A DNA stretch of 64,000 bases from Chthoniobacterales bacterium. GTDB lineage: Bacteria > Verrucomicrobiota > Verrucomicrobiia > Chthoniobacterales > Chthoniobacteraceae. The notes below the pieces were generated by a model that did not search any database, was not told the DNA's origin, and saw only the letters and a list, made by a program, of their open reading frames with translations. Positions 8,422-15,333 of the stretch are shown here, piece after piece (position 1 is the stretch's first letter; each line of letters starts with the position of its first letter). Location: contig JBBQZX010000003.1 in NCBI GenBank assembly GCA_038207335.1, positions 128,001 through 192,000 on the forward strand. The letters run 5' to 3'. Both the position numbers and the translations under genes were made by a program.

Positions 8422-11400
8422 TCACCGATCGACCGTGATGCTCAGCGCTTCGATCGACACGTTGCTCGCGTTGTTGTCGAGCCCTTGCATCATCGGGACG
8501 AAGAGCAATTCATCGCCCGCCGCGAGATCGACTTCGGCCTTCAATTCAACCGGCGAGCCATCGCGCGGCAGCGAGAACCAGGTGATCTCCGCCGCGCGTT
8601 GCGTGTCCCTTTTCCGGAGCGAAAGCGGGATGCTTTTTGCATTTCCTTCCCACGGCTTGCTGCGCGCACTGCCCGCGACTTTGTAACGCCCTGCGTTCGG
8701 CGCGATGAACGCGAGCGCCGGGATTTTCGGGAAGTTGAACTCGTTCCCGCCCCACGAACCGAGCGCTGCGAGATTCACCTTTCCATCCTCCACGCGTGCG
8801 CTCGGATGCCCGCCCTGCGAATGATCCGGCGCGGTCCAGACCGTGCCGTTCCAGACCATCGGCGAGTAGTTCGACGTGAGATTCGCGTCGCCCGGGTAGA
8901 GCCGGTCGAGCCGCCAAATCGGCTGCCCGTCCGCCGCTGCCGGATTCCCGGCGGCGTTCCCTTTCTCCCGCCCCTCCCACGCCGCAGGCAGTCTGTAGCC
9001 TTGATTCGCGGGCGGTGCAGTCGCGTCGCTGAGCGAAAGTGAGAAGTCCTTCAGCTTCAAATCGCCGCCCGCAAACATCCCGTCGATCTGCGGCAGCAGC
9101 GTCAGTTCGTCCCCAGCCGTCAGCTCCACGCTCCGGCCTTCCAGCGACGTCTCGGCATTGTTGGCGACCGTCACATCCACCACCTTTTCCACCATGCCTC
9201 CCGCGCGCTTCAGCAAATGCAGGGTCGTGTTATTTTTGCTGTCCCACATGCGCGCCGCCGCCGCGCCGTGCAGCGCGTAGGTGCCATCGCGCGGCGCGAT
9301 GAACGTCAGCCCCGCGGTGCGAAGATGTCGGTCATTCCCCGGCCCATGCGGAGCGCGCGTGCCAAAGGTCAGCGCGCCGTCTTTGAGTCCCGCGCCCGGC
9401 TGCCCGCCGAAGCCGCCGTCCTTCACATTCCAGTCCGTCCCCGTCCACGTCATCGCACGGAAATTTCCCGGCTTCTTCCAGTCGTCGGGCCACAATTGCT
9501 CCAGCTTCCACACCGGCTTCCCGTCCGCCATCGCCACGCTCCCCTCGCTTTCGCCCTTCGCTTTTCCCTCCCACACCGGCGGAAGCTTCCACACCGGAGC
9601 GGCTCCGCGTGCGGCCTGCGTCACAAAGCTCGCGTGCTTCCGATCCAGCGCCTCCATCGCTGCCAGCATCGCCTTTCCCGCCGTCTTCGCGCTCGTGTAG
9701 AGCAGCACCGGACGCCCCGTTTTCGACAGCACGATCCGTTTCGGAGCTGCGCTCGCATTTCCCATGATGTCCTCCGAGATCCACGCCGCGCCCATCGGCG
9801 GCAACTCCACCGCCGCGTCCCCTTTCGCGTCACGATCCGCGTACGCGATCACCACGCCGCGCCCATTTCGCAGATCCTGAAAAATCGCGAGATTCGCCCC
9901 CGGCGGCCGCACGAACCCGACCTCGTCGCTCTCGCCGATGTGGTGATTCAGCACATTCCACATCCCCACCAGCGGATTCGGATAACCATACCAGTCCCAC
10001 AGCATCTGCCCCGGCCCGCTGTAATCCCAAAAACTCTGCCCGTGATCCTCGTACGCGATGTGGAAAAGCACCGTCTTCTCCTGCCCCGAGATCGTCATTT
10101 CCGCCACACTGTCCGCTTGCTCGTTCGTGCTCTGCGCCGCCGTCAGGTGCGTGCACGCGATCGGCTCATCGACCGCGGTATTGGTAAAAGCCCACCCTTC
10201 ATTGAACCACAGCTCCACGTTCTTTCCGCCCGCCTCGTCCATGTTCTGCCGCATCCGCCGGATCGCCTGCGCATCCGCGAGCCAGCCCGCGTGGTAGTCG
10301 TGCCACGACATCACATCGATGAATTTCAGCCCGCCCGCGCGGAAAAAGAACCCGTTCACCGGGCTCGGAATCCCATACACGTTGTTCACCATGATCGGCT
10401 TTTTCGGCGCGTATTTCCGCAGCATGCGCGCGGTGCGAATCGTGAACTTCGCGTAAACCTCGCCCAGCTTCGCATCCAGCCACCGGTCGAATTCCGGCTC
10501 ATTCTCGATCTCGAAAATGATCGACTGTCCCGCGTAATGCTCCGCCGACGCGCGCACGAATTTATCCCAGACCGTCTCCGTCCCGAGATCGTCCCAGCGC
10601 GGATCCTCCGCCGCCCAGCGCATGTCCGTCGGGAGTGGACTTCCCTTTTCCATGATCCACTTTGGCGGCGGGTAAAGGACGAGGTGCGATGAAATCCCGT
10701 GCGACTCATTGCGGTCGAGCGCCTTGTCCTCCCAGTGAAAATCCCACGTCTTCACATCCTCGAGATTCGCCGGCTTCACGGGCAGATGATCCTCCCCATT
10801 CGCGTGCGGCTGCCACCGCGCCCAGCCGAACCCGATCAACTGCATCTTCTCGATCACCCCCAATCCGCCCGCAAACGACGCGCCGAAACGCTCGCGGAAA
10901 TCCGGCTTCGTCGCCGCCATCGGGTAGGGGATTGAGGTTAGGGGAAAGTCCGACCTGTCGATCTCCGCGCCCTTTTCATCCAGCGCCGAGAGCCGTGCAA
11001 AAACCAGCCCCGTCCGCGTCAGGGGCAGCGACGTCTTCGCCGCGAACGTCTTCCCCGGCGCAATCGTCACCTTCGCATCCACCGGTGCCGTCACAGCCTG
11101 CACGCCTTCATAATCCACGAGCTGCCACCGCACCGTCACCGTCCGCGGCTCGCTCCCCGGATTCGACACATGCGCCGCCATCTCTGCCGTCGCGCCTTTC
11201 TTAAAAGCATTGCCCCACGCGCTCTCCCATCCGCTCAGATTCGTGCAGTCCGCCACCACCTCCACCGCGCGCCGCGGCACATAAGCCGGCGTCCCCTCGC
11301 TCCCCACCGTCACCGTCACCCCATCGACTAGGATCGGCCGATCGTAGCCGCCGATCTGCACGAGGTAGTGCGGGAACGGCCAAAAGCCATCCGCCGGCAC

Positions 11401-11802
11401 ATCCGCCTTCCACGTAAACGACACTCGCTTCCACTCCGTCCCGATCTCCGCGCTCTGCTCCGCCTCGCGCTGCCAGAGCCGGTGCGCCTTCGTCCCCACC
11501 TCCCGCGCGCTCGGCGGCATCTGCACCCCCACGCGTCCCGGCGCCTCGCCTTTCACGAAAAAGGACACCGTCATCGGCTCCCCGCGCACTGCGACGAAAG
11601 GCGCGCTCATCACATTCCCCTTCGCGATCCGCAGCGCGTATTCACCGACGGCCGCATCCTTCACGAGCGTGTCATTTTTCGCATCGATCTGATGCCAATA
11701 CAGCAGCCCCCCCTCAAACGACCCATTCCGCAAAACATTCTCCGGCCCCGCAAAAGCAGAAGAGGCAAACACAACAGCAGCAAAGAAAGAGGATCGAAAC
11801 AT
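8422..11802 (-). CDS. Secreted multidomain glycoside hydrolase-like protein (CBM4/9-like domain, clan GH-A barrel, two duplicated C-terminal domains)
   Basis: Signal peptide MFRSSFFAAVVFASSAFA. NVLRNGSFEGG CBM-like start. IENEPE (acid/base) and WFNEGW (nucleophile-like) motifs. Confidence 0.7.
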   Translation of the reverse strand: MFRSSFFAAVVFASSAFAGPENVLRNGSFEGGLLYWHQIDAKNDTLVKDAAVGEYALRIAKGNVMSAPFVAVRGEPMTVSFFVKGEAPGRVGVQMPPSAREVGTKAHRLWQREAEQSAEIGTEWKRVSFTWKADVPADGFWPFPHYLVQIGGYDRPILVDGVTVTVGSEGTPAYVPRRAVEVVADCTNLSGWESAWGNAFKKGATAEMAAHVSNPGSEPRTVTVRWQLVDYEGVQAVTAPVDAKVTIAPGKTFAAKTSLPLTRTGLVFARLSALDEKGAEIDRSDFPLTSIPYPMAATKPDFRERFGASFAGGLGVIEKMQLIGFGWARWQPHANGEDHLPVKPANLEDVKTWDFHWEDKALDRNESHGISSHLVLYPPPKWIMEKGSPLPTDMRWAAEDPRWDDLGTETVWDKFVRASAEHYAGQSIIFEIENEPEFDRWLDAKLGEVYAKFTIRTARMLRKYAPKKPIMVNNVYGIPSPVNGFFFRAGGLKFIDVMSWHDYHAGWLADAQAIRRMRQNMDEAGGKNVELWFNEGWAFTNTAVDEPIACTHLTAAQSTNEQADSVAEMTISGQEKTVLFHIAYEDHGQSFWDYSGPGQMLWDWYGYPNPLVGMWNVLNHHIGESDEVGFVRPPGANLAIFQDLRNGRGVVIAYADRDAKGDAAVELPPMGAAWISEDIMGNASAAPKRIVLSKTGRPVLLYTSAKTAGKAMLAAMEALDRKHASFVTQAARGAAPVWKLPPVWEGKAKGESEGSVAMADGKPVWKLEQLWPDDWKKPGNFRAMTWTGTDWNVKDGGFGGQPGAGLKDGALTFGTRAPHGPGNDRHLRTAGLTFIAPRDGTYALHGAAAARMWDSKNNTTLHLLKRAGGMVEKVVDVTVANNAETSLEGRSVELTAGDELTLLPQIDGMFAGGDLKLKDFSLSLSDATAPPANQGYRLPAAWEGREKGNAAGNPAAADGQPIWRLDRLYPGDANLTSNYSPMVWNGTVWTAPDHSQGGHPSARVEDGKVNLAALGSWGGNEFNFPKIPALAFIAPNAGRYKVAGSARSKPWEGNAKSIPLSLRKRDTQRAAEITWFSLPRDGSPVELKAEVDLAAGDELLFVPMMQGLDNNASNVSIEALSITVDR

Positions 11803-12283
11803 AGCCCTGCATAACCATTGGCCTCTCCCTTCCGTAACCATTTTTTCCCTCCCGTAAAATCGCGCCTCAAACGCGCAGATCGGATCGAGTAAAGCTCGAG
11901 TCTCGTGCTACATATTCATAATCCCATCGGCAAAAAATGCCGGTGCCTTTTCGTCGCTGCCAAACGGCATTCGCAAAAATGCGTATCGGGGATTGCCACC
12001 CCCTGCTTAACGTGATACCCCCGATCACAGTTGTGTTCTGCACTGCACCCGTTGCCAGAACCGCCGGGTGACCTGCGATCACCCATCGCAGCGGCGCGCG
12101 ATCTTTCCACCCGCTTCCGCAAAGTGCGCAGTTTCCGGTTGACAACCTGCGCACCTCTGTGCAAATCCGCGCCCATCTCACCCGCGTCCGTGCAAGCGGC
12201 AGGCAGCACGGAGCGGAGTGCGACGCCACCGATTTTACCATGCGAAAGCAAGTAACAGCGCGGAGTGCAGCCCCGATGGCACG

Positions 12284-12610
12284 ATGATCCCCCGACGATG
12301 CGTCACGCGTGCGCTTCTCATCTTTTCCGCCTTCTGCGCCGGCTGCACATGGCACGCTTCCGATGGCTCGCGCCGCACTCTCATAGTCGGAATCGGCGTG
12401 CTGAAAGAGCAGGGGACGCCCGGTCAGGCCACGGTCTCCACCTCCACAACGCTCGGCCTCGCCGCGCAACTCGACACTCCGCGTTCTGGCCTCGCGCTCG
12501 GCTTTGCCAACTCCGTCACCACACGCATCCCCGCCGCCTGGAACGGCACCCTTCACATCGACCGCCAAAGCATCACCGCCAACCCCACGGCCCCACGCAC
12601 CCAGCCATGA
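12284..12610 (+). CDS. Small lipoprotein of unknown function (108 aa)
   Basis: MIPRRCVTRALLIFSAFCAGC signal with lipobox-like AGC. Its stop overlaps the next ATG (ATGA). Confidence 0.65.
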   Translation: MIPRRCVTRALLIFSAFCAGCTWHASDGSRRTLIVGIGVLKEQGTPGQATVSTSTTLGLAAQLDTPRSGLALGFANSVTTRIPAAWNGTLHIDRQSITANPTAPRTQP

Positions 12611-13368
12611 CACTCCGAACATTCCTCTTCTCCATCCTCCTCGCAGCGTTCTCAGCGGGCTGCGCCACGAATGGCTACATCACTAGCGGAGTGGCCACCG
12701 TCGTCGGCCTCGACGTGAGCGAAAACCCGAAGACGCAAATCCCGCATGTGAAATTCGGATACGCCCGCACCGGGCTTTACTACGTGCCGACGGGCAAGAC
12801 GGCTTATGGCGACCCGCGCCGGCAGGGCAGCGGCGATGCCGCGTCGAATCACGACTCAGTGAAGGACACGCCGAATGTCGTCAGCGAGATTTTCGTCCAC
12901 TCGAAATTTCTGTCCGAGGTCACGATCTCGGAGAAATTCGCGATCGGCGATGCGGCGGTGAAAAGCGACGCGGCGGTGACGAATTTCGCAAACGTCGCCC
13001 CGCAGCAGGTCGCATCCGGGGGCGGCGCGGTGACCGCCCCCGTGCGGATGGTTGTGACGCCCTCGCGCGAGCAGCGGCGGCAATTCGGAGCGGAAGACGC
13101 ACAATCACGCATCGACGATGCCACGCAGGAGAAGGCTGTGAGGAAGTTGCGTCTCGACACGAACGCCGCGTATCAGGCGCTGCCTCAAAGCGTGAAAGAC
13201 GAACCCGACTTCTACGTCGATGCCGTCAATGCGCTCCACCTCGGCGGCACGCCGGTGCAGAGCGCGAGCGAGGCGGAATATCTCAAGGCCTTCGACAAGG
13301 AACGATCGCCGGAAAATCTTCGCAACCTCCGCACCTTCCTCGACTCGAAAAAACCCAAGCAACGCTGA
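12607..13368 (+). CDS. Lipoprotein of unknown function (253 aa)
   Basis: MTLRTFLFSILLAAFSAGC lipobox (Cys19). Start reassigned from 12265 to 12607. Confidence 0.8.
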   Translation: MTLRTFLFSILLAAFSAGCATNGYITSGVATVVGLDVSENPKTQIPHVKFGYARTGLYYVPTGKTAYGDPRRQGSGDAASNHDSVKDTPNVVSEIFVHSKFLSEVTISEKFAIGDAAVKSDAAVTNFANVAPQQVASGGGAVTAPVRMVVTPSREQRRQFGAEDAQSRIDDATQEKAVRKLRLDTNAAYQALPQSVKDEPDFYVDAVNALHLGGTPVQSASEAEYLKAFDKERSPENLRNLRTFLDSKKPKQR

Positions 13369-13392
13369 CGCCCAACGCAACCCTTCCTCAAA

Positions 13393-14754
13393 ATGAACCC
13401 GCTCATCGAAACTGCCGTACTCGTGGAAGAAGAATGCACCTCGCGCGAGGTGCTCGCAAAGTCTCTCAACGAACTCCAGCAAACGAACCGCGAAATAGTT
13501 GCCTTCGGGCTCGGGCAATCGACCAAAGGAGACTTCAACGTCTATGACTACATCATCAACGGCAAGGCTCCGAAGCTCGGGGAAATTCTCGTCTTTCCCA
13601 TCGCCGCCGCCACCGCGGAGGCCGAGTTGCGCCGCATTCTCGCCGACCACACTATCATCTCCTACACCGAGGCCCTGATCGGTGGAAAAGTCGAGGACAT
13701 CCTCGTCGCGCGTGCTGGGGCGACTCTGAAGCTCACCGGCACCATGTCCACCTTCGGCGGCCCCACGGACACCGGCATGAAGCCGAATGAAGGCCTCGCG
13801 ATCGTGCGCGATTCCGACCTAGCGGCCGCGGAAATCGCCGCGCTCTTCATCGACCCCAAGCGTGGCGCAAAAGGGCGCAACTTGAAAAACGATGCAGCTC
13901 GCTACATCGCGTGCCGCTGGGTCTATAGCCAGACTCCGCGCGAATTCCTCCTCCGCACACTCGTCACCGTGCGCAATCCCGCCAGCGGCGTTTCGTTCCA
14001 AGCGCGCCCGGTCGATTGGGGTCCGTCGAAGACAACGGGCCGCGTCGCCGACCTTTCCGACAAACTCGCCGCCGACCTCGGTCTACACACCGACCAAGAG
14101 TGCGAAGTCTTCGTCCCGCTGCCGGGGCGTGTCGGCCTCGGCCTCGAGAAAATCGGCCGTGGCACCGACGCATTCCGGGACACGCTCGTCCGCGTGGCGC
14201 AGGGGCAGGCGGCGAAATATGAAGGCATCAACGAATCCAGCGAACCGCTGCGCTCGCGGATCAAAGGCTACTGGGACGAATGCAAAGGGGCGGGTTTCGC
14301 CAATTTCGACTTTGAAAATGTCGGCGTCGCATGGTCGGCCGCCTTCACCTCGTGGTGCATCCTCCAGGCGGGAGCAAGCGGAGCGGACTTCGCATTTTCA
14401 CCCAGACACTCCCACTACATTCGCAACGCCATCCAGCGCGCTCTGGCCAATCCCGCTGCCACATTCGTCGGCGTGCGGATTGAAGATTACGCGCCTCAGC
14501 CTGGCGACCTCATCCACATCAACCGTTCGAAGAGCGAGACTATCCAATACGACGACGCGGCGACCAGGGACAGCTACGAATCCCACTGTGCGATCGTCGT
14601 CGGCATCGGGAAAGACGAGCACGGCCCGTGCGCCTTTACCATCGGCGGTAACGAAAGCGACAGCGTCCGTACCCACCGAGTCGCGCTCCACGCCGACGGG
14701 AAAATCGTCCAAAAATCGCCCTTTCCCTACATCTGCGTTCTCCGCACGACGTGA
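13393..14754 (+). CDS. Putative peptidoglycan hydrolase: unknown N-domain, RlpA-like double-psi beta-barrel, DUF2272 (CHAP/NlpC-like) domain
   Basis: TFGGPTD...YIACRW...ARPVDWGP...GRVADLS (DPBB-like). AWSAAFTSW...HSHYI...PQPGDLI...SHCAIVV...IGGNESDSV (DUF2272-like). No signal peptide. Confidence 0.75.
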   Translation: MNPLIETAVLVEEECTSREVLAKSLNELQQTNREIVAFGLGQSTKGDFNVYDYIINGKAPKLGEILVFPIAAATAEAELRRILADHTIISYTEALIGGKVEDILVARAGATLKLTGTMSTFGGPTDTGMKPNEGLAIVRDSDLAAAEIAALFIDPKRGAKGRNLKNDAARYIACRWVYSQTPREFLLRTLVTVRNPASGVSFQARPVDWGPSKTTGRVADLSDKLAADLGLHTDQECEVFVPLPGRVGLGLEKIGRGTDAFRDTLVRVAQGQAAKYEGINESSEPLRSRIKGYWDECKGAGFANFDFENVGVAWSAAFTSWCILQAGASGADFAFSPRHSHYIRNAIQRALANPAATFVGVRIEDYAPQPGDLIHINRSKSETIQYDDAATRDSYESHCAIVVGIGKDEHGPCAFTIGGNESDSVRTHRVALHADGKIVQKSPFPYICVLRTT

Positions 14755-14761
14755 GGAAAAT

Positions 14762-14795
14762 TTTGAAACGCGGGAGCGAGCTCCCGCGCTTCAAA
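14762..14795. repeat. GC-rich palindrome / REP-like hairpin
   Basis: TTTGAA-A-CGCGGGAGC-GA-GCTCCCGCG-C-TTCAAA right after the 14754 stop. Confidence 0.55.
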
Positions 14796-14857
14796 GGCCA
14801 TCCCTCCACACATCAACGCCGCACCCGCTGCGCGACCTGCCGCGTCCTTTCACCCAC

Positions 14858-14898
14858 AAAAACAAATTGCCGACCGGGCGGACCCGGTCGGCGATTTG
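14858..14898 (-). terminator. Intrinsic terminator of rplA-rplJ-rplL
   Basis: Minus strand CAAATCGCCGACCGGG-TCCG-CCCGGTCGGCAATTTG followed by TTTTT. Confidence 0.8.
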
Positions 14899-14952
14899 AA
14901 GGAGACTCCAAACGGCGCGGAGGCCGGGCGGAGCATGAGTTGAAACGTCGAG

Positions 14953-15333
14953 TTACTTGATCTCGACCTTGGCGCCTGCCGCTTCGATCTTCTTCTTGAT
15001 CTCTTCGGCTTCTTCCTTGGTGATGCCCTCTTTGAGAGCCTTCGGAGCGCCTTCGACAAGGGCTTTCGCCTCCGCGAGACCGAGGCCGGCCACGCAAGCG
15101 CGGACTTCCTTGATGACGGAGATCTTGTTTGCGCCAGCTTCCTTGAGGATGACATCGAAGGACGTCTTCTCCTCGACAGGAGCGGCTGCGGCTCCACCAC
15201 CAGCGGGTGCGGCGGCTGCGACGGGTGCTGCGGCGCTGACGCCCCACTTGGTTTCGAGTGATTTCACGAGTTCAGCGACTTCGAGGACGGTGAGTCCGCT
15301 GAGCTGTTCGACGAGTGCGTTGGTATCTGCCAT
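14953..15333 (-). CDS. rplL: 50S ribosomal protein L7/L12
   Basis: [41 protein letters not shown]. Confidence 0.98.

Follow-up and report, generated by a model that had tools for sequence, protein, structure and literature searches.

How can an enzyme that is predicted to cut the cell wall, and that is encoded without a signal peptide directly behind two lipoprotein genes, reach its substrate? This question is raised by a cassette of three co-oriented genes, gene 1 (G1), gene 2 (G2), and gene 3, in a window of 64,000 nt of DNA (contig JBBQZX010000003.1, positions 128,001 to 192,000 of the forward strand; all coordinates below are positions in this window) from a Chthoniobacterales genome labeled G000, which comprises 5.17 Mb and is 94.7% complete. 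An initial annotation had proposed an envelope system of two coupled lipoproteins and a double cell-wall hydrolase. The arrangement described there was recovered, with G1 and G2 overlapping by ATGA at 12607-12610 and a gap of 24 bp between G2 and gene 3. Comparison with related loci, which are labeled by L-numbers, indicates that the envelope system is real and recurrent, and it is probably undescribed. The recurring unit is nevertheless not the two catalytic domains, as had been supposed, but a lipoprotein plus an overlooked N-terminal domain of gene 3, the N-domain.

A profile of the N-domain with 21 rows detected this domain in 29 of 151 family genomes; an earlier profile with 9 rows had found G000 alone among 301 genomes of the phylum. 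After removal of L036, a duplicate of L016, 33 N-domain genes were counted, and 30 of them were located directly behind a gene of a lipoprotein family, which was of the G2 type in 15 cases and of a helical type in the other 15. Without this locus and six loci that had been found via G2, the ratio was 23 of 26, compared with a background of 178 of 4007 genes (4.4%) in G000 itself. Ten loci were new to the N-domain profile: eight possessed a helical lipoprotein gene upstream, and two were positioned near a contig start, one of them with an assembly gap. In the third exception, L044, the slot was filled by an apparent outer-membrane beta-barrel protein, which was judged by eye and had no Pfam match. 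Neither lipoprotein family was adjacent to any of six genes encoding the double-psi beta-barrel (DPBB) domain, one of the catalytic domains of gene 3, without an N-domain.

None of the 35 N-domain rows that were scored by hydropathy had a signal-peptide-like start, and 28 of the 33 N-domain proteins matched a wall hydrolase, several of them weakly, while three gave no match and two were truncated. The cargo was of about ten kinds, including DPBB, DUF2272, CHAP, Amidase_2/3, M15, SLT, pesticin-like (two relatives with weak Pesticin matches), and 3D domains. A separate search yielded 25 longer proteins, 23 with Amidase_3, the gene 3 protein, and one without annotation. The prediction that both lipoprotein families recur beside variable peptidoglycan hydrolases was borne out by this neighborhood analysis. 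On the N-domain tree, the lipoprotein classes were clustered, with 5 changes compared to 10.3 after shuffling, yet they did not form single clades. Locus L016 contained two N-domain genes, each paired with its own G2.

The tail of the lipoprotein and the N-domain were compared in 29 cassettes, from which the duplicate L036 and the truncated L018 had been dropped. L034, with a beta core of its lipoprotein, and L055 and L057, with helical lipoproteins, had related tails (E values of 4e-20 and 5e-18) and N-domains with 64% and 48% identity, while the cores and also the catalytic parts were unrelated. L043 and L011/L045, which represent the two helical classes, likewise had tail and N-domain in common on unrelated cores. 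In 266 cross-class pairs, tail and N-domain were both related in 4, the tail only in 3, the N-domain only in 2, and neither in 257. Across the core classes, tail similarity was correlated with that of the N-domain with a rho of 0.25, compared to -0.02 for the catalytic part and 0.02 for the core. The protein closest to gene 3 in the catalytic part, encoded in L010, was 61 to 64% identical there, its N-domain was 26% identical, and its lipoprotein was helical. As judged from these sequences, exchange seems to have taken place to either side of the block formed by tail and N-domain, and the two are therefore suggested to form a cognate pair.

Both lipoproteins contain a lipobox, A-G-C21 in G1 and A-G-C19 in G2. 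Their best 11-residue hydropathy was 2.3 to 2.4 compared to 1.35 for gene 3, the N terminus of which is not hydrophobic by this measure, so that the lipoprotein signals reported for genes 1 and 2 and the lack of one in gene 3 stand. An Asp residue at position +2 was present in 1 of 149 G2 and in 0 of 17 G1 sequences. In Escherichia coli, lipoproteins without Asp at +2 go to the outer membrane, and G1 and G2 should therefore be destined for this membrane. No meaningful match to either protein was obtained in Pfam, NCBIfam, or PHROG. The G2 family comprises 436 clusters at 50% identity, a recurring Pfam family was absent among 149 G2 members, and none of 30 clusters in the ESM Atlas (top score 0.96) was named. 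AlphaFold predicted four strands in two hairpins for the G2 core (predicted local distance difference test [pLDDT] of 77, predicted template modeling score of 0.60), with hydrophobic faces that largely alternate in the hydropathy pattern. A Pro/Ala-rich linker leads into the confidently predicted helical tail (pLDDT of 84 to 97), which is the hypervariable part of the protein. Fold searches with two G2 monomer models (Foldseek, VIA) gave no match, with a best Z of 2.0, which does not imply novelty of the fold.

Thirty G2 loci remained after removal of the duplicates L036, L038, L041, and L019. The first open reading frame is conserved, with G1 upstream of G2 in 25 of these loci and three of the five misses being contig edges; among the loci examined, G1 was met with gene-2-type lipoproteins only. 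Downstream of G2, an N-domain hydrolase was encoded in 14 loci, a protein of 56 to 66 amino acids (aa) in 9, and nothing that was recognized in 7, including four at which the contig ends. In the family genomes with a strong G2 match, G2 stood beside an N-domain gene in 11 of 11 cases, the twelfth being cut off by the contig end. An hhalign comparison of G1 with G2 resulted in a probability of 30% and an E value of 5.6e-4, with the signal peptide included in the alignment. The identities of G1 and G2 covaried (rho of 0.49, 12 loci, 2 of 2000 permutations), which is what shared descent alone would yield. Unrelated helical lipoproteins can take the place of both G1 and G2. These helical proteins, in L010:3538-4620, L011:5377-6474, L017:4825-6126, L055:3799-4854, and others, belong to two families without Pfam match and contain Gly/Ala-rich, moderately hydrophobic segments.

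Gene 3 is predicted to encode a wall hydrolase that combines an amidase or peptidase with a glycan-cleaving activity. The DUF2272 assignment made initially was clearly recovered in Pfam (residues 299 to 441, E value of 2.7e-28, 99.5 bits compared to a curated cutoff of 27). Residues S315, H398, and N420 were kept in 10 of 10 aligned rows, one of which is a duplicate locus. The nucleophile position, which is accompanied by His, is occupied by Ser instead of Cys, which corrects the initial annotation. In the available text of PMC10318531, DUF2272 is described as papain-like, with Ser replacing Cys and an activity that is still speculative, and it is grouped with Tse1-like amidases.

The second call, an RlpA-like DPBB domain, was also retained. 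Pfam did not directly detect DPBB in gene 3, and a profile of a 17-sequence family matched PA4485/4AVR weakly, with an E value of 0.016; a relative in the phage-like locus L015 matched DPBB_1 (E value of 7.5e-4). Residue D208 was present in 133 of 133 aligned rows and D220 in 132 of 133, and in PA4485 the two aspartates correspond to those in the motifs D-R-G-P and I-D-V-S. In RlpA, a lytic transglycosylase, the DPBB is the catalytic domain, as given in the accessible portion of PMC6895207. Gene 3 differs from RlpA in that it encodes no lipoprotein and no SPOR domain. In public proteins, the DPBB domain was fused to Amidase_2, Amidase_3, M15, CHAP, and peptidoglycan-binding domains. It also stood alone in prophage-like regions, as proteins of 130 to 190 aa in L015, L046, L048, and L053, in L048 adjoining a Phage_holin_10 gene (E value of 1.4e-14). 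These standalone proteins are likely an unrecognized endolysin family; no match to the DPBB was found in GenBank phages. In L052:3045-6674 and L054:4830-7871, the DPBB is located at the C terminus of proteins of >1000 aa, one of which begins like a P-loop NTPase, as judged by eye.

The N-domain had no Pfam match and no usable match in the ESM Atlas, where a Trypco2 neighbor scored 0.76. Its halves aligned with an E value of 0.0017 and a probability of 6%, and from this alignment the domain may be an internal repeat of two units of about 56 aa. Weak matches to BTRD1 were obtained for 4 of the 21 members, the best with an E value of 0.017, and there was none for gene 3 itself.

What is observed is the gene order and its recurrence, an N-domain that stays constant while the lipoprotein cores and the catalytic domains around it are exchanged, and the conservation of candidate catalytic residues. 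The explanation that accounts best for these observations, although it should be taken as tentative and short of an even chance, is that the cassette is a recurring module whose lipoproteins assemble into a pore in the membrane and bind the wall-lytic enzyme, which has no signal peptide, for its release, most likely against neighboring cells. G1 and G2 would be exported by Sec, lipidated, and sent to the outer membrane. G2, aided by G1, may oligomerize there, and the two hairpins of each subunit would build a composite beta-barrel as in CsgG. The helical tail of G2 would capture the N-domain of gene 3, which would have the role that trafficking domains play in polymorphic toxins, and in the target wall the DPBB domain would cut the glycan and DUF2272 the peptide. 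A more general version is rather doubtful: three unrelated lipid-anchored pore cores, the beta-hairpin G1/G2 and the two helical families, would be interchangeable parts of an undescribed modular lipoprotein translocon, the tails would recognize the N-terminal trafficking domain, and polymorphic wall hydrolases without signal peptide would cross the envelope without Sec, twin-arginine translocation (Tat), holin, or type VI secretion system (T6SS).

CsgG, the type VIII curli channel, is a lipoprotein nonamer that forms a composite 36-stranded barrel with four strands per subunit, as outlined in the available text of PMC4594475. An outer-membrane lipoprotein with four strands per subunit resembles the G2 core with its four predicted strands in two hairpins. 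This core, however, comprises about 117 aa compared to 30 kDa for CsgG, and 0 of 149 G2 members matched the CsgG family at an E value of 0.01, nor was there a sequence match in the PDB. CsgG was also absent from the Foldseek/VIA listings for the G2 monomer model, a Sec signal is lacking in the proposed cargo of G2, and the G2 slot can also be occupied by unrelated lipoproteins of the helical type. By this analogy, G2 at most works like CsgG and is not a family member.

Several points weigh against the docking-and-pore explanation. The main gap is that the crossing of the inner membrane by the enzyme is unexplained, and the cassette is without an inner-membrane protein; a search in G000 for the membrane proteins encoded in the sister cassettes L010, L044, L012, L024, and L060 gave no match. 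In the fold searches with monomer models, G2 had no structural match to CsgG or any other pore. An immunity gene was absent downstream in the cassette, and the model therefore needs a Gram-positive target or a shielded transit. Concerning the cognate pair, L042 and L013 had closely related N-domains, yet no match to the helical tail; the G2 tail in this window matched other G2 tails only, with none detected on helical lipoproteins; and physical linkage alone, the adjacency on the DNA, could explain the co-transfer of tail and N-domain. The N-domain counts overstate independence because the loci are kin, and in L029, L040, L069, and L070, which are of the Desulfobacterota type, G2 was followed by a small protein with no adjacent hydrolase.

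The leading rival, which is nevertheless unlikely, is a self-lysis or release module like the type 10 secretion system (T10SS) or phage lysis. In this case, the lipoproteins would open one of the producer's membranes, possibly the inner membrane attacked from the periplasm, and gene 3 would serve as an endolysin against the producer's own wall, so that a subpopulation releases signal-less enzymes. An immunity gene would then be unnecessary. The occurrence of the same DPBB family alone in prophage-like regions, once beside the holin gene mentioned above, agrees with this explanation, as do lipase 3, caspase, and other enzymes in some related cassettes and membrane proteins in some. In T10SS lysis, as described in the accessible part of PMC10847048, the genes of a wall hydrolase without signal peptide and of envelope proteins likewise stand together in a non-phage context; for gene 3, the signal-less state is judged from the sequence. 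In contrast to such lysis cassettes, none of the three genes here encodes an integral inner-membrane protein, so that a holin is absent, a finding limited to the cassette, and the lipoproteins are much larger and of unrelated families. Spanins are poorly conserved; no spanin match was found in PHROG, Pfam, or NCBIfam, and the cassette encodes no i-spanin-type protein, which leaves the initially considered role as spanin-like helpers without support. The prophage-like DPBB proteins lack the dedicated N-domain, and neither the G1 nor the G2 profile matched the small beta-rich lipoproteins encoded in prophage-like loci. Lysis would also not require that each hydrolase has a G2 of its own, as is the case in L016. 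A phage origin of G2 was rejected, with no G2 in viral contigs, GenBank phages, or plasmids. In systems of colicin or pesticin plus lysis lipoprotein, a lipoprotein gene likewise accompanies a modular antibacterial protein that has no signal, but colicin receptor or translocation domains were not detected in the cassette; lysis lipoproteins comprise about 30 to 50 aa.

The other alternatives are less probable. G1, G2, and a small DUF4177-like protein could be the core machine with a job of its own, a surface structure or a small bacteriocin, and the hydrolase domains optional fused passengers, which is improbable. The small protein was encoded directly after G2 in the nine loci L024, L026, L027, L029, L030, L039, L040, L069, and L070, from which its profile had been built, and four of them were without an adjacent hydrolase. 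Weak DUF4177 matches were obtained with 5 of 7 scanned proteins (best E value of 3.8e-5), and the available text of PMC11322243 reports a DUF4177 peptide as antibacterial. In three of the nine loci (L024, L027, and L039), however, hydrolases come next, and kinship of the N-domain with the small protein was not supported, the homology being not significant. The small-protein cases that could be named are from Desulfobacterota-type and Omnitrophica genomes, and ExbB/ExbD/TonB-like genes come next in L029 and L040. A lipoprotein that serves as cognate immunity or inhibitor protein, with the antibacterial hydrolase leaving by another route, is about equally improbable. T6SS effector-immunity pairs have the same layout, with a periplasmic lipoprotein beside a wall hydrolase that lacks a signal, and the one-to-one pairing in L016 and the hypervariable tail would fit. 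The tail, however, tracks the N-domain and not the catalytic part, and the association of one lipoprotein core with unrelated catalytic domains weakens the case for immunity. Least probable is an envelope-anchored scaffold for local remodeling of the own wall, with the lipoproteins tethering and activating the hydrolase without a pore. RlpA, a DPBB lipoprotein that acts after amidases in cell separation (PMC6895207, accessible portion), is a precedent, and gene 3 unites both activities; the patchy distribution over the family genomes, free swapping of catalytic domains, lack of a signal peptide, and absence of the cassette at this site in two congeners argue against housekeeping. Immunity and housekeeping remodeling fit worst. 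Of the roles considered initially for the lipoproteins, pore or anchor thus fits best.

Known export routes were also compared with the cassette. A T6SS effector was rejected since neither TssC nor a sheath protein (PF05943, PF04984) was matched in G000, and TssC occurred in 6 of 29 genomes with an N-domain compared to 21 of 122 others, many of these genomes being incomplete. No T6SS genes had been seen nearby in the initial annotation, and no T6SS link emerged in G000 or across the 151 family genomes. A type III secretion or flagellar route was rejected with no FHIPEP match in G000, and Tat co-export with a Tat-like motif in 0 of 170 G2 and 0 of 16 G1 signals. The PADLOC anti-phage models (2023 library) matched 0 of 6 proteins at an E value of 0.01. 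Polymorphic toxins, which include T6SS amidase effector-immunity pairs and TANFOR (PMC7073777, as far as its available text goes), share the constant N-terminal domain and the variable C-terminal enzyme with the cassette. They differ from it by the T6SS link and downstream immunity gene missing here, the upstream lipoprotein with its swappable core, and C termini recognized as wall hydrolases only.

The enzyme domains belong to known types. The families of the lipoproteins, the N-domain, and the swapping of the four parts core, tail, N-domain, and enzyme are new as far as tested. No prior description of the cassette was met in the literature searched, which was mostly non-subscription, excluded supplements, and is hard to search by words for unnamed proteins. 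If the docking-and-pore explanation is true, this would mean that a compact route of three genes moves signal-less wall-lytic enzymes through the Gram-negative envelope, and the polymorphic antibacterial proteins of soil Verrucomicrobia and Desulfobacterota would represent a new class. A testable role would be assigned to a lipoprotein family that has no Pfam model and numbers at least 436 clusters, the N-domain would be a new N-terminal marker domain, and the self-assembling beta-barrel of G2 would be very small.

The features of the cassette are listed in Table 1. All three genes are coding according to a codon model trained on the own genome, each is present as a single copy in G000, and their G+C content of 0.61 to 0.64 is similar to that of the flanks.

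Table 1. Positions of the cassette genes, their domains, and the adjacent stem-loop in the window
Feature	Position	Strand	Remarks
Gene 1 (G1)	12284-12610	+	Lipoprotein of 108 aa; beta-rich by sequence pattern; without family match
Gene 2 (G2)	12607-13368	+	Lipoprotein of 253 aa; conserved four-strand beta core, linker, and variable helical tail
G2 core, Cys19 to residue 135	12661-13011	+	Two predicted beta-hairpins; candidate oligomeric pore subunit
G2 C-terminal helical tail, residues ~160-247	13084-13347	+	May serve as docking site for the N-domain of the hydrolase
Gene 3	13393-14754	+	453 aa; signal-less, three-domain predicted wall hydrolase
Gene 3 N-domain, residues 1-112	13393-13728	+	Undescribed; possibly two repeats of ~56 aa; candidate trafficking/docking domain
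Gene 3 RlpA-like DPBB domain, residues 113-245	13729-14127	+	Predicted glycan-cleaving; D208 and D220 conserved
Gene 3 DUF2272 papain-like domain, residues 259-453	14167-14751	+	Ser315, His398, Asn420; predicted amidase or peptidase
Stem-loop after gene 3	14762-14795		Stem of 15 bp; T-tail solely on the minus (rplL) strand; may terminate both transcripts

A second terminator-like hairpin on the rplL strand is located at 14869-14892, in agreement with the convergent rplL terminator named as a flank in the initial annotation. The divergent neighbor at 8422-11841 (1139 aa) had only a weak CBM_4_9 match, which does not confirm the label "glycoside hydrolase." The cassette site is variable because other genes stand behind rplL in two congeners, rpoB in the case of G007. 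At 14829-15333, rpoB is absent after rplL, unlike in G007, and the segment beyond the rplL terminator varies among three congeners.

Near the related cassettes, a response-regulator-like gene, judged by eye and often divergent, was observed at L010, L034, L044, L051, L057, L063, and L064. A frequent neighbor (L014, L023, L042, L045, L049, L051, L055-57, and L064) is presumably a 4-alpha-glucanotransferase-like gene. The unannotated membrane proteins of the sister cassettes, which are candidate inner-membrane partners, are encoded at L010:715-1938, L044:2053-3069, L060:2389-4179, L012:4802-6133, and L024:5232-5558. Upstream of the cassette in this window, no sigma-70 consensus site passed the promoter scan, including the perfect TTGACA at 12139-12144. 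This motif is positioned about 140 bp 5' of gene 1 inside an 8 bp inverted repeat (12124-12131 / 12147-12154), which is a possible operator over a -35 box.

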